64,000 nucleotides of DNA from a virus. The stretch lies in IMG/VR virus record IMGVR_UViG_3300027740_000040, positions 8,139 through 72,138 of that record, one strand, 5' to 3'. Below are positions 1,359 to 50,357 of this stretch, piece by piece. The translations under genes were made by a program, and so were the position numbers. The notes beneath the pieces are model-generated. The model was not told where the DNA came from, searched no databases, and saw only the letters and a program-made list of their open reading frames with translations. How positions within the stretch are numbered: position 1 is the stretch's first letter; every line of letters starts with the position of its first letter.

Positions 1359-1725
1359 ACGAATCTACGTTGCGAGCAAGACGATTCATGCTCACCGGTG
1401 GATCGCGCTTCGCGACGTCGGGATGCCAATCATCAGCACGTGGATCGACGAGGCGGGCCCCGGGCAAACCATCGACTGGCCAGGACTGTTCACCCGATGC
1501 GTCACCGAGGCGTCGGGAGCTGACGTGCTGATCTGCTACTCAGAGCCCGGTGAAATCCTCAAGGGTGCGCTTGTGGAGGTCGGAGCCGCACTGGCTCACC
1601 GGGTTTCGGTGCTGTGGGTTGGGCCAGCGCAGAACGTCTGCCGTCATCCGCTCGTGACGGTGTTAAGCTCGCTCGACGAAGCGGTCTTCGAGGCGATACG
1701 GATGGCGGGGAGGACCCATGCCTGA
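1351..1725 (+). CDS. nucleoside 2-deoxyribosyltransferase-like Rossmann-fold protein
   Basis: IYVAS at first strand and KGALVEVGAALA motif, typical of NDT-like phage proteins. Confidence 0.55.
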   Translation: MGERIYVASKTIHAHRWIALRDVGMPIISTWIDEAGPGQTIDWPGLFTRCVTEASGADVLICYSEPGEILKGALVEVGAALAHRVSVLWVGPAQNVCRHPLVTVLSSLDEAVFEAIRMAGRTHA

Positions 1726-1939
1726 CCTGACCCCCTACCAGATCGCCGTACTGCGCGCCTGCCCGGACCAGCCCGGGGCGCGGTTCCCGAGCAGCACGAA
1801 GGAGGTGCTGGCGCTCTCCTGGCTAGCCCAGATAGGGCTCGTTCGCGCGCTACCGTACTACCGACGCAGTGGCGATGGCGAGCGCGTCTACAGCTCGTGC
1901 TGGCAGCGAACGCCAGCGGGAAAGGAAGTGGCGAAATGA
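1718..1939 (+). CDS. small winged-helix-like protein, paralogue 1 of 3
   Basis: MPDLTPYQ-AVLRACPD-PGARF...GLVRALP...WQRTPAGKEVA, shared with 2828 and 3247. Confidence 0.75.
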   Translation: MPDLTPYQIAVLRACPDQPGARFPSSTKEVLALSWLAQIGLVRALPYYRRSGDGERVYSSCWQRTPAGKEVAK

Positions 1940-2100
1940 TCCGGTGGATGTACGGCGTGCCGATGCACGTTCTGGCTGGGCTCGAAGACCACAAGCTCTC
2001 GCGACACCGCACGTGGTTCGCCGGTTTCGTGCTCTTCCGGAGGTTCGCGGTGGGCGTCCTGTGGAGGACCGAGAAGGGAAAGGAAGTGGCAAATGGTTGA
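1936..2100 (+). CDS. small hypothetical protein (54 aa)
   Basis: ATGA overlap; ends in the shared GKEVANG junction. Confidence 0.65.
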   Translation: MIRWMYGVPMHVLAGLEDHKLSRHRTWFAGFVLFRRFAVGVLWRTEKGKEVANG

Positions 2101-2464
2101 ACCAACGATTGCACCCGATCTCACCACCGGTGAGCCATGGTGCTCGGACATCGGTGGTCCCATGATGCCCATGGACGCGATTGCCGTGGAGTTGCTCCGA
2201 TGCTCCGTTGCGTGGGGACCGGAGGTCCGGCTCCTCGGAAACATTCGAGCGTGCGAACTGGCCGCTCTTGCTGGGTATCATCACCGGTCCCACACTGAAC
2301 TCGTGCAGTTCCGGGCGCGGGTCGCGGAGATCGAGGGTAGGCGGTGCGACCGGTGCCGACGCCGCGGGCACCATGTTTGGCCACCGTGCCCCGACCTGAG
2401 CAATCAGATGGGTCCAGGAGAGTCCTGCTCGCGGTTCGAGGCGTGGGAGACGGAACATGCCTGA
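2093..2464 (+). CDS. Cys-rich hypothetical protein, paralogue of 3736-4170
   Basis: IAPDLTTGEP...ELVQ-RARVAEIE...CDRC...CPD...SCSRFE. Confidence 0.7.
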   Translation: MVEPTIAPDLTTGEPWCSDIGGPMMPMDAIAVELLRCSVAWGPEVRLLGNIRACELAALAGYHHRSHTELVQFRARVAEIEGRRCDRCRRRGHHVWPPCPDLSNQMGPGESCSRFEAWETEHA

Positions 2465-2639
2465 CCCCGATATCGTCGTCCACCATGGACCGTGCGAAAC
2501 CTGCGGTGGGAACGGCTACATCATCGTGGACACGAGCACGGAGAACGAACTCGCACAGGACACCGATCGCTGTTGGGATTGCGACGGCTCCGGGGAAGCA
2601 TTCTGGATGTACCCGGAGAAAGCAGTGGACCATGCCTGA
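2457..2639 (+). CDS. DnaJ-type CxxCxGxG zinc-finger mini-protein
   Basis: CETCGGNG and CWDCDGSG motifs. Confidence 0.7.
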   Translation: MPDPDIVVHHGPCETCGGNGYIIVDTSTENELAQDTDRCWDCDGSGEAFWMYPEKAVDHA

Positions 2640-2835
2640 CACCAAACGCCGCAGTCCGCACGGTACCAACCCAGGCCAGTGCGGCTACGGATTCGGCCAG
2701 ACGTTCACGTGCGCGAAATGCCTCCGGCAGGTCTGCTACTGTGAAGGGGCGCACCTCGACGGCGACGGAGAGCGCAACGACTGGTGCAACGATTGCTGGA
2801 GTCGTGACGAGAAGATGAGGGCCGGCCGTGGCTGA
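2632..2835 (+). CDS. small Cys-rich zinc-binding protein
   Basis: ATG at 2632 in a CATGCCTGAC junction; CAKC, CYC and CNDC motifs. Confidence 0.65.
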   Translation: MPDTKRRSPHGTNPGQCGYGFGQTFTCAKCLRQVCYCEGAHLDGDGERNDWCNDCWSRDEKMRAGRG

Positions 2836-3040
2836 CCTGACCCCCTGCCAGCTCGCCGTCCTCCGCGCCTGCCCGGACCCACCGGGGGCGCGGTTCGCTA
2901 GCACCACGGTAGAGGAGGCACGGGCGATTGACGCACTCGCTGCGTTAGGGCTCATGCGGGCGCTGCCGTACTCTCTGAGGAGTCACGAAACGCACGTGTG
3001 GCAACGGACTCCAGCGGGAAAGGAAGTGGCGGATGGCTAG
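2828..3040 (+). CDS. small winged-helix-like protein, paralogue 2 of 3
   Basis: Clear similarity to 1718-1939. Confidence 0.75.
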   Translation: MADLTPCQLAVLRACPDPPGARFASTTVEEARAIDALAALGLMRALPYSLRSHETHVWQRTPAGKEVADG

Positions 3041-3254
3041 CATACCGCGCGCGTGGGCAGTTATCGTTTACCCGCCGACGGCAGGCACCGGGCTCCGTCA
3101 CGTGGCGTTGGTGGGTGGAGACAGAACGTTGTGTGGCAGGGACGCAACGTTCTGGTACACCGAAGCGTGTCTATTCGATCCCAAAACCATTGGGTGCAAA
3201 CAGTGCAAGCGCGCCTACCATGCTGCATTGGCAAAGGAGTCCGACCATGCCTGA
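3033..3254 (+). CDS. small zinc-finger protein
   Basis: H...TLCG...GCKQC motif; coupled overlaps at both ends. Confidence 0.65.
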   Translation: MASIPRAWAVIVYPPTAGTGLRHVALVGGDRTLCGRDATFWYTEACLFDPKTIGCKQCKRAYHAALAKESDHA

Positions 3255-3468
3255 CCTGACCCCCTACCAGTTCTCGGTCCTGCGCGCCTGCCCGGACCAG
3301 CCGGGGGCGCGTTTCCCGAGCTCGACGAAGGAGGTGATGGCTCTCGATGCTCTCACCACGCGGGGGCTCGTGCGGGCGATACCGTGGGACCGCCGGAGTG
3401 GCGACGCGCGCGTCCACGACACATCCTGGCAGAGGACGCCAGCGGGAAAGGAAGTGGCGAATGGGTGA
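3247..3468 (+). CDS. small winged-helix-like protein, paralogue 3 of 3
   Basis: ATG at 3247; near-identical termini to 1718-1939. Confidence 0.75.
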   Translation: MPDLTPYQFSVLRACPDQPGARFPSSTKEVMALDALTTRGLVRAIPWDRRSGDARVHDTSWQRTPAGKEVANG

Positions 3469-5041: not shown

Positions 5042-5067
5042 GTCGGCTGGCCTAACTTCGAGCCCGT

Positions 5068-5113
5068 GTCGATTTACGATCGCATCTGGCCCGATATAGT
5101 GTATAGATAGGAC
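5068..5113 (+). promoter_or_regulatory. sigma70-like early promoter, family A copy 1
   Basis: TTTACG-16nt-TATAGT; aligned copy at 5964. Confidence 0.65.
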
Positions 5114-5374
5114 ATGACCAACGCGACGACGATCGAAAAACTCCTCGCCCTTGAAGACGAGCAGACCCGCACGGAGGCCGCTCGCCAGGTCGCCAAGGCC
5201 GCGCTGGCCGCCGACCCGGACAGCGACGCTCTCTACGACGCCGAGGACGCGGCGGGAGAGGCCGCCAAAGCCGCTCGCAAGGCGTTCGATGCGGCATTCT
5301 CCGCGTTCGCCCGCGAGTGCGGCTCGCAGTCCCGCGCCAACGACCTACTCCGCGCCGCCCGCTGCGCACGGTGA
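5114..5374 (+). CDS. small Ala-rich helical protein
   Basis: First gene after promoter A1. Confidence 0.75.
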   Translation: MTNATTIEKLLALEDEQTRTEAARQVAKAALAADPDSDALYDAEDAAGEAAKAARKAFDAAFSAFARECGSQSRANDLLRAARCAR

Positions 5375-5393
5375 AACCGTTCCTCCCGCTCCA

Positions 5394-5420
5394 GCCCCGC
5401 AGGTCGTCAGACCCCGGGGC
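5394..5420 (+). other. conserved intergenic RNA hairpin (CA/Y internal loop), copy 1
   Basis: GCCCCG-CA-GGTC-gtca-GACC-C-CGGGGC just upstream of an RBS. Confidence 0.65.
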
Positions 5421-5443
5421 CTGATGCGTCGGAGGAACCCGCC

Positions 5444-5668
5444 ATGACGATCCGCATCGAGGTCAGCACCGAGTCGCTGGGGTACGAAATCGCGACGGCC
5501 GCGAACGTCGAGGACTACTGCACCTGGGCCGACGATTGGTTCGGCGAGAACTATCCCGACCTGGACGTAGAGCACGTACCGGGCCCCGGCGGCAGTCGTG
5601 GCACCGACGTCTACGAGGCCGAGCAGGAGTGTTTCGAGGCGTGGTGCGCGGCTGGTGCGCAGGGGTAA
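5444..5668 (+). CDS. small acidic protein
   Basis: GGAGG RBS; 74 aa, D/E-rich. Confidence 0.75.
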   Translation: MTIRIEVSTESLGYEIATAANVEDYCTWADDWFGENYPDLDVEHVPGPGGSRGTDVYEAEQECFEAWCAAGAQG

Positions 5669-5671
5669 CAC

Positions 5672-5938
5672 ATGCCACCTCCCCGCCTACTCCTCGCCCT
5701 CCTCACCTCCCCATCGCCCACCGACCAGGCGAGGGCCATGGCCGAGATCCGAGCGGCCTACCTGGCCGCAGGAGGGTCTACCCGTGGAGCCGCCCAGCAC
5801 CTCGGTATCCGGGAGCTGACCCTCTATGGGTGGCTGCGGCGCCTGCCGGACCTCTCCCGGGCGGTGGACCAACTACAGGCCGAGCTAGGCTGGAGACGGT
5901 CCGGACAGGTGAGGACGCGGAGGGCAGGGCGGGACTGA
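5672..5938 (+). CDS. Fis-type HTH DNA-binding protein
   Basis: STRGAAQHLGIRELTLYGWLRRL HTH motif. Confidence 0.7.
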   Translation: MPPPRLLLALLTSPSPTDQARAMAEIRAAYLAAGGSTRGAAQHLGIRELTLYGWLRRLPDLSRAVDQLQAELGWRRSGQVRTRRAGRD

Positions 5939-5963
5939 CCGGGTGGCCTATCTGCTTGGCTCG

Positions 5964-6009
5964 GTCGATTTGCGATCGCAAACGGCTCCGGATAGTGTAT
6001 AGATACAGC
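5964..6009 (+). promoter_or_regulatory. sigma70-like early promoter, family A copy 2, with palindromic operator
   Basis: TTTGCG-16nt-GATAGT; perfect 14-bp palindrome TTTGCGATCGCAAA at 5969-5982. Confidence 0.65.
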
Positions 6010-6141
6010 ATGACGACGACAGAGACAGCGGCCAGCCTCCTGGCTCCCGAAGTCCTCGCCGCCGCCATCGGGATCCCCGCCAGCCGAACTGGCGCGCGGC
6101 GTGAAGGTACGTACTCCTCCCCGGGTAGGCTCCCGGGGTAA
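6010..6141 (+). CDS. short hypothetical peptide (43 aa, MTTTETAASLL...)
   Basis: ATG at the same offset from the promoter as 5114. Confidence 0.45.
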   Translation: MTTTETAASLLAPEVLAAAIGIPASRTGARREGTYSSPGRLPG

Positions 6142-7650: not shown

Positions 7651-7687
7651 GCTTGACTGTACTCTGAAAAGGAGTACCTTATGAAGC
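7651..7687 (+). promoter_or_regulatory. sigma70-like promoter, family B copy 1, with GTACTC-N7-GAGTAC operator
   Basis: TTGACT-16nt-TACCTT; inverted repeat fills the spacer. Confidence 0.7.
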
Positions 7688-8257
7688 ATGACGAACACGA
7701 CGACGGCCACAGCGAAGACCATCATCCACCCGTTCGAGGCTCGCGGGCTCGGCCAGGCGCCGTTCCGGTTCGTGGGCATGGTCGAGCAGGATCTCTGCTA
7801 CGGCGAAGCGATCCTGAACCGCGAGGAGTACCAGCGGACCGGGATCGCGCTGACCACCAAGCCGGGCGGGTCATGCGCCTACTGCGGCACCTACATCGTC
7901 AACATGTATCGGGTCCGCTCAGCCGACGGACGCGAATTCCACGTCGGATGCGAGTGCGTCGAGAAGGTGGCGAAGGCGGCTGCCGGCACCGCGCACGAAC
8001 GTGAGACGGCTGCCCTGCTGGCCCCCATCCGTCGCGCAAAGAATGCCCGCGCCAAGGCTCTCAGGACGGCGCGCGGGGCAGCCAAGGCGGCGGAGCTGGC
8101 GGCGACCGCCGAGCAGCGCCACGGCGAGTTGCTGGCCCGCCTCGACCGAGCTGACCACCCGGCGTTTCAGCGCATGGCGGAAGACCTCCGGAATGGCCGC
8201 GTGGCCAACCTGTCGCCTCGCCAGATTGCGTGGCTGGAGCAGACCGAGGCCCGGTAA
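7688..8257 (+). CDS. zinc-binding hypothetical protein
   Basis: CAYC...HVGCEC motif; first gene after promoter B1. Confidence 0.75.
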   Translation: MTNTTTATAKTIIHPFEARGLGQAPFRFVGMVEQDLCYGEAILNREEYQRTGIALTTKPGGSCAYCGTYIVNMYRVRSADGREFHVGCECVEKVAKAAAGTAHERETAALLAPIRRAKNARAKALRTARGAAKAAELAATAEQRHGELLARLDRADHPAFQRMAEDLRNGRVANLSPRQIAWLEQTEAR

Positions 8258-8278
8258 CCATCACCCCCTCGTCCTCCC

Positions 8279-8304
8279 GGCCCGCACCCCTCTGGGGTCG
8301 GGCC
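8279..8304 (+). other. conserved intergenic RNA hairpin, copy 3
   Basis: GGCCCG-CA-CCCC-tct-GGGG-T-CGGGCC upstream of AGGAGG. Confidence 0.6.
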
Positions 8305-8327
8305 TTTCGAGGTAGGAGGAACTGACC

Positions 8328-8825
8328 ATGACCGACCACCGATCCCACACCCTGCCGACCGATGCCGCGAAGCGCTACTGGACCGCCGTATTCGGGCCCC
8401 ACGTCTGCTCCGCAGAGCAGGCGATCGCGGAGTGCGCGATCCCAACCGAGTCCGAGGAGTCGATCACCATCTGGCTAGCGAACGCGGCCGATGCTGCTCG
8501 TGAGCAGGGGGCGAAAGTGCCGGACACCGACGACGCATGGTCAGCCGTACTGGTTCTGCTCATCCTCGCCAAGGTCAGCGCCGCCGCCGAACTGGCCGGC
8601 GCCGAGGACTACGAATACCGCCGCCAGGAAGTCGAACGGGGAGCGGAAGAGGAGTCCTGGGCGTGGCCGTTCGTGGGAGCGGACGATGCCTACCTGGACG
8701 CGGTAGGAACCGGCAAGGTGTGCGACGACCTCGGGATTCAGCGCGAGTCGTGGGACGACGTGTGTTCGGAATGGCTCGAGTCGTTCCGCCGCGGGTACGA
8801 GGGCGCGCACGAGGAAGACGAATGA
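8328..8825 (+). CDS. acidic hypothetical protein
   Basis: AGGAGG RBS; 165 aa. Confidence 0.75.
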   Translation: MTDHRSHTLPTDAAKRYWTAVFGPHVCSAEQAIAECAIPTESEESITIWLANAADAAREQGAKVPDTDDAWSAVLVLLILAKVSAAAELAGAEDYEYRRQEVERGAEEESWAWPFVGADDAYLDAVGTGKVCDDLGIQRESWDDVCSEWLESFRRGYEGAHEEDE

Positions 8826-9166
8826 CCACCCGCATCGACCTACGCCTGACCGCGGAGCTCGCCGCCCTGATCGCCCAGGCCGCCGCCGCCGTTGGCGAGA
8901 CGGACCGCAGCTGGGCGCGGGCGGCGCTACTCCGGGCAGCTCGTCACATCCACTTCGCGTTCCCCGGCATCCCACCGGGCGGGACCGAGCGCCTCGGGAT
9001 CCCGCTGGAGTCCGCCCACCGGGTGGCCATCGGCTTGGCGGCTGAATGGGCAGGGCTCTCGCTCTCGGACTGGGTACGGGCAGTGCTGGCGGCCGCGGCT
9101 GAGGCCGAAATCAGGGAGGTTTCCGCTGGTCGCGAGAAATCGACCAGGGCCCGGAAGAAAAGGTGA
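8822..9166 (+). CDS. tandem ribbon-helix-helix DNA-binding protein
   Basis: Two repeats: RIDLRLT...AAAA-GET-RSWARAAL and RLGIPL...AAEWAGLSLSDWVRAVL. Confidence 0.65.
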   Translation: MTTRIDLRLTAELAALIAQAAAAVGETDRSWARAALLRAARHIHFAFPGIPPGGTERLGIPLESAHRVAIGLAAEWAGLSLSDWVRAVLAAAAEAEIREVSAGREKSTRARKKR

Positions 9167-9172
9167 ACGAGG

Positions 9173-9209
9173 GCTTGACCGTACTCTAAAAGAGAGTACA
9201 GTGTTGATC
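9173..9209 (+). promoter_or_regulatory. sigma70-like promoter, family B copy 2, with GTACTC-N7-GAGTAC operator
   Basis: TTGACC-16nt-TACAGT; aligned with 7651. Confidence 0.7.
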
Positions 9210-9322
9210 ATGACGAACACGACGACGACCCGCCACGAAGCCTCCCGCTCGCTGTGTCCGACTTCGAGAAGAAGATCGACAACGGAGTCCGCCTGGTCCG
9301 GCGCCTGGAACAGCTTGCGTGA
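9210..9322 (+). pseudogene. probable frameshifted or internally deleted small gene
   Basis: Starts MTNTTTTRHEA; a different frame with typical codon usage reads LAVSDFEKKIDNGVRLVRRLEQLA* and ends before the hairpin. Confidence 0.45.
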
Positions 9323-42018: not shown

Positions 42019-43626
42019 TCACTTCAGTTCTGGCGCGTCCTCGCGTACCGCAGCCCAGCCGCCAACCTGCGAGGTAACGAGTCCACGGCGAACCTTCTCG
42101 GACAGCGCTGCCGGACTCATCTTCTCGCGGTAGTAGTCCTCAAGCGCAAACAGCACCCGCTGGTAGTCCTCGGGTCCGGTGGCGCCGCCGACCATCTCCA
42201 TGATGGCATCAATGTGCGGCTGTAGATCCTTGGCCAGTGCCCGTTCCAGAGATCGCGCTACCCGGTCAGCGTACTCCTGCCCGTTGCGTTCCCCGGCTCG
42301 CTGCGCCAACGGACGCTCGTGCCGGTGCCAGCAGGCTTGGGCGCTAGCGGCAGGCGGCAGCCCTTCGTCTGGTTCTTCGCCTTCTGGCTCGGCTTCCGGG
42401 TTCGGTGGCTCGTCGGTATCGGCGTCCTCTTCATCGTCTACCAGACTGGGAGCATCCTCGGCAGCTTCTAGCGGAACGCCAGCGGCCTCGCACGCTGACG
42501 TAACATCAACCGGGACTCCGAGCGTCTTGAACGTCGTCAGCGCCGCGCCCAGATCCACCCAGGTCTTCACGCGACCGGCGGTGTCGGCCGGCGGTGTAAC
42601 GTCCCACTTGGGCCATGGAGCCGCGTCGGCAGAGCCCCAGTTCGCCACTGCCCAGGGGACCAGGATCTGATCGTGAACGAAGTCGCTCAGGTTGTCGGTG
42701 TCGGAGGCAATGATATGCGCGGCGACTGCCTCGTGTACCTGTGCCGCGGCGTAGCTTCCGCCCTTCACCTCACTGGAGAGGTTCTGCCCAAGGATCGCGA
42801 TTGCGAGTCCGGCGTTGGCCTCCTGAACCTGCTGCTTGAAGGTGACGAAATTGTTGGCCGTGGCCTCGACGAGGTTTACGTCCCAACCGGGTCGCGTTAT
42901 GAAAACCGGGTCGCGTCCGAGTGCCTTGAACTCGGTCGCGAGCGCCTTTCTGGCAGCCTTGTCCTTCAGGTCGGTGGATTCACCAGGCTTAACGACCCAC
43001 GTTCCCTGCCCGTGGCGCTCCGAGTATCGCGCCCAGTCCTGGATCGCGTAGGTCTTTAGCAGCCACCACAGTCGGCACGCGCGCCATGATCCCTGCGCCC
43101 ACGGTCGAGAGCCAGCCTGCGCGAACAGCAACCACCCGTCAGTCCCCGGGGTGATCTTGACCAACTCACCGGAGTAGAGTTGGGTATTCCATCCTCCATC
43201 CACGGCCAACGACAGGTGCCGGGACGATGACCACGCCTCTACGACCGGGGCATGGAGCCCGTCTCGCATGAGAGGCTTGCCGCGCTCGTCCACCCAACGG
43301 AGACGCCCCGGGGCAATTCCCAGCAGCGCGTACCATCGGTGTAGCAGCGCCAGTTGTGTTCCCGGGCAGATCCGCCAGAAGTCGCCTTCGTCGCGGAGCC
43401 GCTCGATTGCCCGGTCGTCTCCGCCCTCGAAGTTGATTGGAAGGCGTTGAATCGCGGTGCGCTGTAGCAGCACTCCGGATGCTCGGTCGTCGGCCGTGAT
43501 CCTCTCGCATAGGTCACCGACGCTCGACATGTCACCGGAGTCGGCGAGACTCTCGGCTCCCGAAGTGTCGGACGGATCCCAGTCGAGGATCGACCGTACC
43601 TCTGGCTCGCGGTAGTCGGTAGCCAT
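42019..43626 (-). CDS. portal protein (DUF935 / Mu gp29-like)
   Basis: DWARYSERHG...ILGQNLS...GSYAAAQVH. Confidence 0.9.
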   Translation of the reverse strand: MATDYREPEVRSILDWDPSDTSGAESLADSGDMSSVGDLCERITADDRASGVLLQRTAIQRLPINFEGGDDRAIERLRDEGDFWRICPGTQLALLHRWYALLGIAPGRLRWVDERGKPLMRDGLHAPVVEAWSSSRHLSLAVDGGWNTQLYSGELVKITPGTDGWLLFAQAGSRPWAQGSWRACRLWWLLKTYAIQDWARYSERHGQGTWVVKPGESTDLKDKAARKALATEFKALGRDPVFITRPGWDVNLVEATANNFVTFKQQVQEANAGLAIAILGQNLSSEVKGGSYAAAQVHEAVAAHIIASDTDNLSDFVHDQILVPWAVANWGSADAAPWPKWDVTPPADTAGRVKTWVDLGAALTTFKTLGVPVDVTSACEAAGVPLEAAEDAPSLVDDEEDADTDEPPNPEAEPEGEEPDEGLPPAASAQACWHRHERPLAQRAGERNGQEYADRVARSLERALAKDLQPHIDAIMEMVGGATGPEDYQRVLFALEDYYREKMSPAALSEKVRRGLVTSQVGGWAAVREDAPELK

Positions 43627-45098
43627 CAGTCGTCCTCGAATGCGTCACGCGCGCGCCCGTGCCCGAAGCGGTAGGAGCCAGCGGAGATGGATTCGCTGTC
43701 GGAGGCGGCCCCGGAAAGAAGCTCATCGTGGCAAGCCGCCAGCGCGTCGACGATGTCGTCCCTCGAATCCGCCACCCCGGTGAATGAGCATACTTCGTCG
43801 ATCACCTGATCGACCCACGATCCATATAGTGGCGAGTTCTCTGCCGGCAGCGCGATGTTCCCGGCGTTCCAAGCAGCGGACGCTGGAGTTGCTCTAACGA
43901 ACTTGTCGCCAGTCGCCGTCAGCACCTTGAACCCAGGAACCCGTTGGGCGATGAACTGCGCCGATCCCTTCTCGGTTCCGCTCGCGTACCAGCGCAGCGG
44001 ACCCGACATCTCGGAGCTCATCGCCTTGAGGGTCAGCGTGAACTCGGGCGCGGCGACTTGCGCGATTCGGCACGCCGTCAGGTAGATGGTTCCGTCGAAC
44101 AACTGCCCACGCAGGCAGACCGAGCGATCCGCCTGCGTCTTCGCCGTGTAGGCCAGGTCGACTCCGTAGGCGGTGCGCCACGGGGAGGTGGGTAGGTGAA
44201 TGAACCGCGGCGGGTTGCCGCTGAACACCTCGCCTCCGCGGGGGCGCGGGCTACCCTGATACATTGCCGCGAACCCCCAGGGGTCGCGCTCACGCATCTG
44301 CTCAAGGAAGGATAGCGGCCGTTCCTCTGGCCACAGCGCCTCGCCGACCCGCCTTCCGCACGGGTCCGTTTCCGCGTCCTCGCAGATGGCCTGGAGGTTC
44401 GTGTACCGGAACCCCCACTCGCTCACCAGCCTACCGCTCGGATCATCCTCAGCCCACCTGGTGGCCATACAGATGATCGACGAGCCAGGATGCCGGCGCG
44501 TGAGGATCGTTCCGTAGAGAACGCCCCAGATCGATTCCCGGTGAGCTCGGCTGAACGCCTCCTGACGACCCTTGATTGGGTCGTCGATCACGCAGACGCC
44601 ATTCTCCGGAAGCGGGTCTCCGGTGATGCCGCCGTCAATCGACGTGAACTTGATACGGCTTCCGTTCAGTCCGCTCGTCCACTCGTCGGTCCTGCCGTCT
44701 GGTTTCAGGCCCAGGTGATCGGCCAGGATCCGGAAGTCCTTGGCGACCGAATCGGATCGGCGTTGCGAGTAGGTGACGTAGTAGTAGCGGCCGCCCGGCG
44801 TCAGCAGCATCCACTTGGCGAGTGCGTGCTTGGTCGTCTCGGTCTTGCTGTGCTGCGGAGGAGCCGCGAATACGAGTTCGACGGAACGTCCTAGCGTGGC
44901 GTCGAGTTGCTCGGCGTATGGGCGAAGCCACGTCGGCGATGTCAGATAGGGGGAAGCCGCCGGGATGAACTCGAGCAGCGGTAGGGAGGCGAGATCAGTG
45001 GACTGGCTGCTCTGCGACTCCTCCTGAACCGGGGCGAACTTGCGGGACAACTCCGCCCATCGCTGGATTCTCTGGAGTCTCTGTGCGACGTTTCCCAC
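43626..45098 (-). CDS. terL: terminase large subunit
   Basis: APPQHSKT Walker A; IDDPIK Walker B; MATRW; C-terminal nuclease GVDLA...DDIVDAL. Confidence 0.92.
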   Translation of the reverse strand: MGNVAQRLQRIQRWAELSRKFAPVQEESQSSQSTDLASLPLLEFIPAASPYLTSPTWLRPYAEQLDATLGRSVELVFAAPPQHSKTETTKHALAKWMLLTPGGRYYYVTYSQRRSDSVAKDFRILADHLGLKPDGRTDEWTSGLNGSRIKFTSIDGGITGDPLPENGVCVIDDPIKGRQEAFSRAHRESIWGVLYGTILTRRHPGSSIICMATRWAEDDPSGRLVSEWGFRYTNLQAICEDAETDPCGRRVGEALWPEERPLSFLEQMRERDPWGFAAMYQGSPRPRGGEVFSGNPPRFIHLPTSPWRTAYGVDLAYTAKTQADRSVCLRGQLFDGTIYLTACRIAQVAAPEFTLTLKAMSSEMSGPLRWYASGTEKGSAQFIAQRVPGFKVLTATGDKFVRATPASAAWNAGNIALPAENSPLYGSWVDQVIDEVCSFTGVADSRDDIVDALAACHDELLSGAASDSESISAGSYRFGHGRARDAFEDD

Positions 45099-47992: not shown

Positions 47993-48553
47993 CTACGCCG
48001 CCTTCTTCTCCAACTCCTTCTTGAGCTTCGCGTTCTCGCGCGTCAGCCGCGCCACCTGGGTCCTGAGCTGGGCGTTCTCGCGGGTTAGCCTGTCGATCTC
48101 GGTGAGGCGCCCGACGTCTCGCGGAACCTCTTGTCGTGGATCCACCTGTCGGAGCAACCGCTGCGATGCTTGCAGCGAGGGTCGCACTCCTCCGCGCGCA
48201 TCCGAGAAGGCGTCGACCGCCCGCACGAACGCCGGAACCCGATCGCGATCCCTAGTGTTCGCCAGCGCTATGACGGGGTTCGCCCCCAGCCGCTCCGCTT
48301 CCTCCTCGCCGACCAGTCCGACGCCCTTCTTGAAGTTCTCGAAGCGGGCCACGTCACACAGGTCGTGCGACTTGAGGAACTGGGCGAACGTTCCGATCCC
48401 GCACGCCTCCAGCAGCGACATCTGCTCTGCCTCGACCCGCCGCAGGTAGAGGAGGAATCGCGCGTCCGCCTCCTCCTTGCTCTGCCGCAGTGAGCGGGCC
48501 TCGGTGACGATCTCGTTCAGTTTCTCTTCGTTGCTCTTCTGCTTCTTGGACAT
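47993..48553 (-). CDS. hypothetical protein with C-terminal coiled coil
   Basis: ATG at 48553; its RBS lies in the partial CRISPR repeat. Confidence 0.8.
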   Translation of the reverse strand: MSKKQKSNEEKLNEIVTEARSLRQSKEEADARFLLYLRRVEAEQMSLLEACGIGTFAQFLKSHDLCDVARFENFKKGVGLVGEEEAERLGANPVIALANTRDRDRVPAFVRAVDAFSDARGGVRPSLQASQRLLRQVDPRQEVPRDVGRLTEIDRLTRENAQLRTQVARLTRENAKLKKELEKKAA

Positions 48554-48557
48554 TTGG

Positions 48558-48577
48558 TTCCTTTCCTCACGCATCGC
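48558..48577 (-). repeat. partial (20-nt) CRISPR repeat copy containing an RBS
   Basis: TTCCTTTCCTCACGCATCGC identical to the repeat core; abuts the last full repeat. Confidence 0.85.
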
Positions 48578-48754
48578 GCTCTGCATTCCTTTCCTCACGC
48601 ATCGCACCACGGCTCGACCACGAACTACGTGGACGGGTCGGAGCTCCTCCGCTCTGCATTCCTTTCCTCACGCATCGCACCGTCACAACCCAACGGAGAA
48701 TCAGGAAGATGACAACGACCTCCGCTCTGCATTCCTTTCCTCACGCATCGCACC
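48577..48754 (-). CRISPR. mini-CRISPR array: three repeats (36, 36, 32 nt) and two 37-nt spacers
   Basis: Repeat CCTCCGCTCTGCATTCCTTTCCTCACGCATCGCACC (+) at 48719-48754 and 48646-48681, 4-nt-truncated at 48577-48608; unique spacers 48609-48645 and 48682-48718; period 73. Confidence 0.9.
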
Positions 48755-50357
48755 TGCCCTCCGAGGCTCGGCGCGATTTCGATGGGTTACGCGACGCTTT
48801 GCGAGCGCCTCCTTTCTTGGTTCTGCCCGGCTCCCCGGCGGGGCCTTGTTTCTGCTGATCTGCCTCACGCACCACTTCGCCTCTCGCCTCCGGGCTTGCG
48901 AACCCCGTCTCGATTCCGAACAGCTTGTCCCACGCGCTCATGTTGGCGCCTGACCTGCGCAGCATGTGCAGCACCGCCACGAAGTCGGCCGGGCGCTCGT
49001 ACCCGCAAGCTTGGCAGTGGAACACCCCGGTACGGGTGTTGTGCTGACCGTCGTGCACGTTGCAGCACCGCGGGCATTCGGTGCTGATGTACTCGGACGA
49101 CACCTCGTCCAGCGGGATCCCATCCTTCCGCAGCGCCCACGCCACCGCCGTCTTCAACTCGGCGAGCGGGAATCGGTCCACGAACCTCCGAACGTTGCGA
49201 TCGTCGCTCGGCTGAATGCCGCCATGGTCCTCGATGAATACCCGGCCGCACCCCCACTCGCGGCAGAGTTTCGCCACCGCGGCGGCGAGTTGTTGACACT
49301 TCGTGTGATTGAAGCGCGCCAGGTAGTCGCCGAGTCGCTCGTAGGTCGCGAAACGTCGATCTCTCCCGTGCCCCTTCGCGCCGCTTCCGCGCTCCGACTC
49401 GACGATTCCCTTCAACTGCCGACGCCGCGCCTCGAGCGACCGCCGCATCGCTAGGTACTTGTTCCCGCGGTCCAGGTATCGGAACTTACCGGTGCTGCTC
49501 ATGGCCGTCAGCCAGTTGTGCTGACCACGGTGCACAACGAGGACGTTCGCCGCGTTGAGCTTGGTGGGTGCCGGCTCCGGCTCCGAGTAGGCGATGATCG
49601 CGTACCACTTCCGCCTACGCTCGTCGTACACGATCTTGAGCGCACCGCGCTTGACCGAACCATCTGCAATCTCCCGAAGCTTCGCCCAGTGGCTACCCTT
49701 CGACGGCGCCAGGCGCGCGAACCAGTATTCGATCACGTCCGCTCCGCCATCCTTGTTGGATCCGAGCGCGATCTTCAGGGTCACCCCGTGCGCGTCCGCG
49801 ATGACTCCTGACTCGTTAGCTCGGTTAGGGATGGGCGCTCCTAGCTTGTAAGATGGGATTCGCGTCCGCTTGCCGTCCTTCGTCCACTTCTTCAGCTTTC
49901 GCTCCACCTCGCGAGCCACATCCGACATCATACCGGCGTGGCATTCAATCCCGTTCGCTTTCGCTACCTGCCTAGCCATCTGGTAGGCGCGAGCCTTCCC
50001 GTCTAGGTCGAACAGTTCCTTCCCCGAGTGCTGCTCGAGCAGCACGTTCAGCAGCGTACCGTTGTAGATGTGGTGCATCGCCGACCGGTAGCGACGAAGC
50101 TCGGTGCCAAGCTCGTCCCACGTGCGCCCTATCGGCGCCACGATCTCCACCCGAAGCGCCTTGGTGATCAGAGGAACCTCGCAGTGGACCGACGAACGGC
50201 GGAATGCAGAGCTCTCGGAATCCTTCGGACCCGAGAAGACCGAGGCGGACGAACCGCCCCGTTTGCGAGCGGACTTGCCCTCGCATCCGGGCCCCGGAGT
50301 AGGCCCATTATTGCTCTCCGCTCGTCGGCCCGCTGCGGGGCCCTTCTGTTCCTTCAC
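48741..50357 (-). CDS. cas12f: Cas12f (type V-F)-like effector with RuvC-I Asp-to-His substitution
   Basis: Colinear motifs with AsCas12f1 as recalled: TKALRVEIV-P...W-ELGT-LR, IPSYK, YDERRRKWY, GHGRDRR, GCGRVFIED, CPRC/CQAC, ADF. Start is GTG 50357 (GAGGAGG RBS) or CTG 50171. Confidence 0.85.
   Translation of the reverse strand: MKEQKGPAAGRRAESNNGPTPGPGCEGKSARKRGGSSASVFSGPKDSESSAFRRSSVHCEVPLITKALRVEIVAPIGRTWDELGTELRRYRSAMHHIYNGTLLNVLLEQHSGKELFDLDGKARAYQMARQVAKANGIECHAGMMSDVAREVERKLKKWTKDGKRTRIPSYKLGAPIPNRANESGVIADAHGVTLKIALGSNKDGGADVIEYWFARLAPSKGSHWAKLREIADGSVKRGALKIVYDERRRKWYAIIAYSEPEPAPTKLNAANVLVVHRGQHNWLTAMSSTGKFRYLDRGNKYLAMRRSLEARRRQLKGIVESERGSGAKGHGRDRRFATYERLGDYLARFNHTKCQQLAAAVAKLCREWGCGRVFIEDHGGIQPSDDRNVRRFVDRFPLAELKTAVAWALRKDGIPLDEVSSEYISTECPRCCNVHDGQHNTRTGVFHCQACGYERPADFVAVLHMLRRSGANMSAWDKLFGIETGFASPEARGEVVREADQQKQGPAGEPGRTKKGGARKASRNPSKSRRASEGRCDA
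50190..50345 (-). ncRNA. tracrRNA candidate
   Basis: 12-nt anti-repeat at 50201-50212; 5-nt anti-repeat CTCCG in a hairpin loop at 50295-50299; several stem-loops; ends approximate. Confidence 0.55.

Follow-up and report, generated by a model that had tools for sequence, protein, structure and literature searches.

A phage-borne Cas12f-like effector with a His-Glu-Asp RuvC site: a candidate non-cleaving, RNA-guided DNA binder

Does a type V CRISPR effector whose RuvC pocket has lost its first catalytic Asp still cut DNA, or does it find DNA and hold it? The question is raised by a gene in a viral DNA stretch of 64,000 nucleotides (nt), positions 8,139 to 72,138 of the IMG/VR record IMGVR_UViG_3300027740_000040, which was analysed as a whole and is called the window. 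The gene encodes a Cas12f-like effector and neighbours a mini CRISPR array and a small partner gene (Table 1). The RuvC triad of its product reads His-Glu-Asp (H-E-D) and departs from the catalytic Asp-Glu-Asp (D-E-D) that characterizes Cas12f. An earlier note, made from the letters of the window, had described the effector as probably nuclease-dead or non-canonical. The non-canonical site stands, by virtue of the homologue census presented below; as to the loss of cleavage and the silencing, we infer, and lean towards the view, that the effector would be a non-cleaving RNA-guided DNA binder acting as a roadblock.

By sequence and fold alike, the effector has a V-F scaffold resembling that of AsCas12f (Acidibacillus sulfuroxidans Cas12f1, type V-F1; 8J12, 7WJU, 8DZJ), as the earlier note had supposed. 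It matches Pfam PF07282 Cas12f1-like_TNB (6.8e-9) and NCBIfam guided_TnpB (98 bits), and its nearest solved relative by sequence is AsCas12f (8j12, 8dzj, 7wju), which HMMER aligns nearly end-to-end at E 1e-29 with the single sequence and 2e-54 with the family profile. The AlphaFold2 model of the effector core, of high confidence (predicted local distance difference test, pLDDT, 92.8; predicted template modelling score 0.86), displays the TnpB/Cas12f fold (WED, REC, split RuvC, TNB zinc finger) of the class of 400-700 amino acids (aa), and Foldseek superposes it on AsCas12f 8j12_A with template modelling (TM) scores of 0.73/0.75, SpCas12f1, OsCas12f, CnCas12f and Un1Cas12f being next in rank. 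The effector and AsCas12f agree in their domain order (WED-REC-RuvC-TNB), in the CCCC zinc finger, in size class and in the G-x-GHG-x-x-RR motif; each is accompanied by an adjacent array whose 36-nt repeats contain GGAATGCA, and each has a probable trans-activating CRISPR RNA (tracrRNA). On the other hand, AsCas12f cuts double-stranded DNA (dsDNA), and the effector is phage-borne and linked to a partner gene.

A further difference resides in the catalytic pocket. The minus-strand reading confirms the three triad codons reported by the earlier note, and the zinc finger is intact, as had been claimed. The HMMER alignment places the His opposite D225 ('MGIDLGV') of AsCas12f, the Glu opposite E324 ('IQMEDLT') and the Asp opposite D401 ('NADYNAA'), so that the Asp of 'IDLG' is replaced by the His of 'VHRG'; the zinc-finger Arg aligns with R383. 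In the AlphaFold2 model the triad occupies the canonical RNase-H places, with the His at the end of strand 1, the Glu on strand 4 and the Asp at the start of the following helix. The motif D-x-N-A-A, which is D-Y-N-A-A in AsCas12f, reads D-F-V-A-V in the effector. The Asn is thus indeed lost, but its position had been misassigned: the Phe at +1 aligns with the Tyr of AsCas12f, and it is the Asn at +2 that has become Val.

Such a His might be a private mutation, a sequencing error or the sign of a decaying pseudogene, the CAC codon being one base away from GAC. A first word-indexed search yielded 25 homologous proteins of 36-46% identity, in which the H-R-G motif is invariant (25/25), the Asp is conserved in all 25 and the Glu in 23. 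HMMER was then run exhaustively against 1.84 billion cluster representatives and gave 824 relatives at E <=0.001, 99 of them below 1e-30. The triads were counted in 161 aligned proteins, made up of the 150 best HMMER matches and the homologues of the first search: HED occurs in 83, NED in 18, RED in 10, HGD in 7, HDD in 6, REE and RAD in 5 each and DED in 4, the rest being rarer forms. The four DED proteins are the most distant matches and carry the canonical DLG/DMG and DYNAA motifs. Column statistics were computed on the 137 full-length non-DED clade representatives. At the RuvC-I position, His is found in 92 of them, Arg in 23, Asn in 17, Leu in 3, Lys in 2 and Asp in none; the RuvC-II position holds Glu (115), Asp (7), Gly (6), Ala (4) or Gln (2), and the RuvC-III position Asp (127), Glu (7), His (2) or Arg (1). 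The non-canonical pattern is, in this sample, far beyond chance, because H-R-G is invariant in the 25 homologues and the position is never Asp in the 137 representatives. A private mutation or a sequencing error is ruled out by this census, and the intact open reading frame (ORF), the confident model and the maintained arrays leave decay with next to no chance. The homologues do share the His, which is, as far as these proteins can tell, a fixed hallmark of a large phage-borne clade. One GenBank member of the clade, in Virus Rctr197k, is annotated as a 'transposase-like protein' beside an annotated CRISPR and reads HRG, E and D. The relatives lie in phage-like surroundings, where integrase, terminase, DnaB, HNH and UvrD genes occur among numerous small ORFs. 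Judged by its genes, the effector system is clearly under selection, because the ORFs are intact, the relatives' arrays count 4 to >20 repeats and the loci lie on phage contigs.

Conservation across the clade nevertheless does not centre on the triad: columns I, II and III rank 61st, 23rd and 14th of 397, below the zinc-finger cysteines (97-99% conserved) and the structural glycines. The RuvC-II Glu and the RuvC-III Asp are the sole acidic residues within the 40 most conserved columns, and therefore no rearranged or compensating catalytic site is seen. A FastTree phylogeny was built from 140 full-length proteins, with the root placed at the four canonical D-E-D relatives; the other 136 sequences all lie beyond the rooting branch (support 100, which is partly a consequence of the rooting), and the clade is sister to these canonical relatives of AsCas12f. 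Two basal subclades are NED and a clade of 123 rows (support 98) is mostly HED; the HED label has to change at least 16 times on the tree, to HGD, HDD, RED, REE, RAD, RQD, REH, KED, NED, LED, LSD or HPD. Such repeated changes are the pattern to be expected once metal-dependent catalysis would no longer be selected. Arg or Lys is found at RuvC-I (R-E-D, R-E-E, R-A-D, K-E-D) in L005 (3311-4735), P0051, P0068, P0075, P0092 and others, with retention of arrays and partner.

What would the altered pocket do? RuvC nucleases have two catalytic metals, both of which are bridged by the first Asp. The cryo-electron microscopy structure of Cas12m2 (H-D-D) shows just one Mg2+, held by His317 and Asp579 and in contact with the non-target strand, and no second metal; this protein does not cut DNA and interferes through binding, and its D-E-D revertant does not recover cutting (PMC10442227). 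PmCas12m (N-D-D) also binds without cleavage (bioRxiv 10.64898/2026.03.26.714355). The residues that replace the Asp in the present clade are solely H, R, K and N, which are capable of binding phosphate, or, rarely, Leu, and these H/R/K/N replacements agree with strand binding and not with random decay. The data would fit a pocket under selection to hold phosphate, and not to hydrolyse it, because the bridging Asp is fixedly lost, the Glu and the Asp are repeatedly eroded and the replacements are phosphate-capable.

The model that we favour combines these features. The Cas12f1-derived RuvC pocket would have passed from a two-metal D-E-D site to a His-Glu-Asp site, with the loss of normal dsDNA cleavage. 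The tracrRNA, derived from the 5' end of the gene, and the CRISPR RNAs (crRNAs) of the adjacent array would probably assemble with the effector into the usual Cas12f-type ribonucleoprotein, which would locate DNA flanked by a protospacer-adjacent motif and open an R-loop. The displaced strand would then be gripped by the His and the Asp together with arginines close by, perhaps via a single Mg2+ as in Cas12m2, and the bound complex would form a roadblock that hinders a competing mobile element, or a host gene, from being transcribed or replicated.

Several points weigh against this model. Unlike Cas12m2, the effector retains Glu at RuvC-II, Asp at RuvC-III and the TNB Arg aligned to R383, and three of the four catalytic residues are kept in most members of the clade, which could mean a residual or altered activity (nicking, cleavage of single-stranded DNA (ssDNA) or RNA, use of another metal). 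Spacer-target searches gave no protospacer, so that the silencing of a defined gene is itself conjectural, and the spacers have no match in their own phage genomes: the regulatory self-targeting that would directly imply non-cleavage was not seen. The H-E-D site might thus belong to a nuclease with altered chemistry (one metal, His as general base, nicking or ssDNA cleavage, Mn2+), that is, to an active phage weapon. Besides the retained residues, such a nuclease would account for the strong conservation of H-R-G within the effector's own subclade and for the long and diverse arrays of the relatives, which resemble those of interference systems; moreover, activity is predicted for some TnpB clades whose RuvC sites are conserved and non-canonical (PMC10691335). 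On the other hand, it would have to dispense with the metal-bridging Asp at a place where the His of Cas12m2 leaves one Mg2+ and no cleavage (PMC10442227), and the subclades exchange H for R, K, L and N, and E for G, A and Q, without any conserved compensating acidic residue. We regard an altered nuclease as unlikely, though it is the foremost of the alternatives.

The kept Glu and Asp would also suit a residual RNase role, in which the pocket would be retained solely for the processing of pre-crRNA or tracrRNA while DNA is bound and left uncut. Cas12c and Cas12j do process RNA in their RuvC site, and yet the RuvC mutant of Cas12m2 still processed its crRNA (both in PMC10442227). The processing by Cas12c and Cas12j is, moreover, metal-dependent and needs an intact D-E-D, and we give this explanation very little credence.

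The favoured model of a guided roadblock calls for an array and a tracrRNA. The mini-array of the window abuts the effector stop codon, which is overlapped by the first repeat, in the window as in the relative L009. The arrays of relatives on phage contigs have a period of ~73 nt and contain 4 to >20 repeats (L002-L005, L007-L010, L032, L035, L037, L038). In the complete 111.6-kb phage G001 (of L002), arrays flank the effector gene on both sides (contig 1635-2495 and 110630-111344), and in another relative phage the array wraps around the contig ends. G001 also carries, at 97822-97866, an isolated, inverted and perfectly conserved 45-nt copy of the repeat, ~13-15 kb from the arrays, perhaps an orphan repeat, perhaps a long anti-repeat.

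A 12-nt perfect anti-repeat is located within the ~160 nt upstream of the conserved core of the effector (~430 aa), which starts near 50177. It is the best site for a duplex with the repeat within 3.3 kb; 13% of shuffled repeats do as well, so that it is not clearly above them. The nucleotide conservation of this block, which exceeds that of the coding core in a comparison with two relatives, supports the candidate tracrRNA, the duplex energy alone not being decisive. This block coincides in part with the 5' extension of the effector ORF. The gene's longest frame begins at GTG 50471 and the database call at GTG 50414, and the most plausible start, on the strength of a preceding GGAGGA Shine-Dalgarno sequence, would be GTG 50357-50355. 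The overlap with the tracrRNA-like block covers 50178-50357 (-), with corresponding stretches at L012 4001-4230 and L013 2407-2595; in several lineages the extension stays in frame, its insertions and deletions being multiples of three, and its peptide 'G-x-T-P-x-P-E-G-E' recurs even in the basal N-type clade. The extension could double as coding sequence and RNA gene; alternatively, the ORFs may have been called too long.

The spacers give few indications of their targets. Neither spacer of the window matches the phage's own 85.7-kb contig at <=12 mismatches, and searches with 22-mers of both drew no match in viral contigs or representative genomes. The first 22 nt of spacer 1 have an exact match in the metagenome contig Ga0315282_10029524 (L011 3095-3116 (-)), ~35 nt inside a gene for L-lactate permease (Pfam 1.4e-41), and the remaining 15 nt diverge; with a chance expectation of ~0.1 by rough estimate, this is a weak lead at best. 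Two spacers from relatives, when searched, retrieved their own arrays alone or nothing, the array queries found no match in GenBank phages, and the relatives' spacers match neither one another's loci nor their own genomes outside the arrays. The length and diversity of the relatives' arrays and the failure to find self-matches suggest that the targets would be foreign, rival phages or other mobile elements being the most likely and host genes being possible.

Directly downstream of the effector and its array lies the partner gene, which the earlier note had overlooked. Its homologues, of ~185-225 aa, are found in almost every effector locus with enough flank: they adjoin the effector in the window, L003-L010, G001, L033-L035 and Rctr197k, and that of L014 lies 2.8 kb from the effector on the opposite strand, beyond an integrase. 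Among the homologues of the window and L003-L010, pairwise BLASTP reaches E 1e-44. The partner is downstream of the effector in most loci and upstream in L004 and Rctr197k, the array being placed between the two genes or after the partner. Its coordinates are 5533-6087 in L003, 3306-3599 in L004, 4722-5357 in L005, 7311-7865 in L006, 7629-8195 in L007, 7016-7642 in L008, 7188-7862 in L009, 6538-7122 in L010 and 2839-3456 in L039. The product belongs to no Pfam family, where it gives just coiled-coil noise, and VIA-align wide likewise returned coiled coils only. Its AlphaFold2 model (pLDDT 91.7) is all-helical and ends in a 40-residue helix resembling a leucine zipper. Foldseek found nothing significant in the PDB (the helix-turn-helix (HTH) of SopB/ParB at E ~0.7) and weak DUF222, DUF3102 and ParB-HTH matches among the AFDB clusters (E 0.015-0.2); DUF3102 and Plasmid_parti_N from an Atlas search are leads only. 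The predicted complex of the effector core and the partner scored 0.00, which is evidence neither way.

The last, partial repeat carries the Shine-Dalgarno and start region of the partner (window 48545-48608 (-); L009 7158-7253). Because of this overlap, the partner would probably be co-transcribed with the array, and crRNA processing and partner translation may be coupled. The partner probably belongs to the effector module, where it may act as accessory subunit or as regulator. It could even supply the output: the effector would then be a DNA-binding platform, and the partner might bring in or keep out RNA polymerase, a nuclease or a replication factor, in the manner of dCas12f with sigma-E. 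This proposal draws on the presence of a partner homologue at or near the effector, on either side, in 15 loci distributed over deep branches, on the ribosome-binding site embedded in the last repeat in two lineages and on the failure to find the partner beside L031, the one canonical D-E-D relative examined. Nevertheless, nothing catalytic or sigma-like is recognisable among the domains of the partner, searches of L032 and of a basal N/H subclade (L036-L038, of which L036 extends only ~370 nt past the gene) did not find it, and shared phage synteny could account for part of the linkage. A partner-driven output seems to us rather improbable, and silencing by the bound effector itself remains the reading that we retain.

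How does this system stand among those already known? The earlier note had cited Cas12m as an H-E-D precedent, which is incorrect: Cas12m2 is H-D-D, and the other Cas12m clades are HEK/HQK, DED/NED or DND (PMC10442227). Cas12m2 and PmCas12m (type V-M) resemble the effector in being array-associated and in carrying His or Asn at the first position of a non-canonical triad, and the RuvC triads vary among Cas12m clades as they do in the effector clade. Cas12m interference consists of tight DNA binding without cleavage, and by analogy the same is proposed for the effector. The position II residue, however, is Asp in Cas12m2 (H-D-D; PmCas12m is N-D-D) and Glu in the effector, and Cas12m differs from the phage-borne effector by its use of crRNA alone, its coiled-coil REC2, its HCCC zinc finger and its bacterial or plasmid location. 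Membership of Cas12m was rejected: the family profile did not retrieve Cas12m2 at E<=1 (only UnCas12m4a, at 0.006), and Foldseek gives TM 0.50-0.54 against Cas12m2 as compared with 0.73 against AsCas12f. The origin of the effector is independent of Cas12m, in line with what had been anticipated.

The dCas12f-sigmaE systems (PMC13472631; PDB 9N9C) share with the effector a Cas12f ancestry, an altered RuvC (inactivated in dCas12f) and a protein partner. Their dCas12f is truncated at the C-terminus and devoid of RuvC-III, has mostly lost its arrays, adjoins rpoE and activates transcription (PMC13472631); the effector was excluded from this group, its RuvC-III and zinc finger being intact, its array present and its neighbours free of any sigma-factor domain. 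The TldR proteins (nuclease-dead repressors resembling TnpB) are RNA-guided DNA binders of the TnpB/Cas12 lineage, some of them prophage-encoded, and resemble the role proposed for the effector. They use a single guide of the omega-RNA type against a fixed host promoter, whereas the effector has a CRISPR array with variable spacers and a probable tracrRNA; membership was dismissed on account of the repeat-spacer arrays present at the effector and in its relatives. Cas12r of Thermus phages was set aside as another family, with a canonical D238 and no tracrRNA (bioRxiv 10.64898/2026.04.20.719267). The effector is therefore a Cas12f relative by its fold, its array and its probable tracrRNA, yet it lacks the defining D-E-D. 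A literature search found no paper on an HED Cas12 site or on such a phage Cas12f clade, although large censuses (e.g. PMC10691335) may include the clade unnamed.

The window comes from a viral contig of 85.7 kb in IMG/VR, which CheckV rates as 77% complete, and its stretch is present in one soil-metagenome DNA run. As had been proposed, the location is a phage: by its gene content the element encoding the effector is a tailed phage, with strong PHROGs matches for the large terminase subunit (43626-45098), the portal (42019-43626), the head protease, the tail sheath and the tape-measure protein. A promoter scan detected no sigma-70-like site. Elsewhere in the window (1716-3468, 5044-6014 and 7651-9230), families of 50-100-nt direct repeats stand upstream of successive small genes and terminate in GGGAAAGGAAGTGGCGAA-ATG or GTATAGATA..CATGAC; they look like duplicated promoter and ribosome-binding-site cassettes of early genes.

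Table 1. Features of the effector locus, in window coordinates.
Feature	Position	Strand	Remarks
Cas12f-like effector ORF	48741..50357	(-)	Pfam, NCBIfam, AsCas12f alignment, AlphaFold2 and Foldseek
RuvC-I position, His (CAC) replacing the catalytic Asp	49530..49532	(-)	'NVLVVHRGQ', within the invariant H-R-G
ERGSGAKGHGRDRR motif	49353..49388	(-)	common to AsCas12f; near-invariant across the clade
RuvC-II Glu (GAG), kept	49230..49232	(-)	'VFIEDHG'
TNB-domain CCCC zinc finger (CPRC...CQAC), intact	49005..49076	(-)	includes Arg 49034-49032
RuvC-III Asp (GAC), kept	48984..48986	(-)	'ERPADFVAV'
Candidate tracrRNA region	50190..50345	(-)	anti-repeat GCTCTGCATTCC at 50212-50201; overlaps 5' extension of effector ORF
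Mini CRISPR array	48545..48754	(-)	three 36-nt repeats, two 37-nt spacers, then abutting partial repeat
36-nt repeats	48754-48719, 48681-48646, 48608-48573	(-)	
37-nt spacers	48718-48682, 48645-48609	(-)	
Partial repeat	48580-48545	(-)	weakest copy of the repeat finder, 69% identity
Partner gene, 186 aa	47993..48553	(-)	directly downstream of effector/array; homologues in 15 effector loci

In conclusion, our observations raise the possibility, which we put forward tentatively, of a widespread, RNA-guided two-protein silencing module of soil phages, in which a tracr-dependent Cas12f derivative with a His/Arg/Asn-Glu-Asp clamp and a DUF3102-like leucine-zipper partner would repress the genes of rival phages or of the host, as a natural CRISPR interference (CRISPRi) evolved independently of Cas12m, Cas12k, TldR and dCas12f-sigmaE. 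If the effector does not cleave, the clade would offer a hypercompact (~430-aa core) and naturally dead DNA binder, usable for CRISPRi or base-editor fusions, together with an uncharacterised conserved partner protein. With each of the natural type V effectors that do not cleave (Cas12k, Cas12m, TldR, dCas12f-sigmaE), a new way of using RNA-guided DNA binding has come to light. In the present clade, cleavage would have been lost or altered independently on AsCas12f, the smallest well-studied editing scaffold, in a system carried by phages and equipped with real variable arrays. It constitutes a natural experiment on the behaviour of a His/Arg/Asn-Glu-Asp RuvC pocket, in which the Arg/Lys subclades would be natural tests of a metal-free strand clamp.

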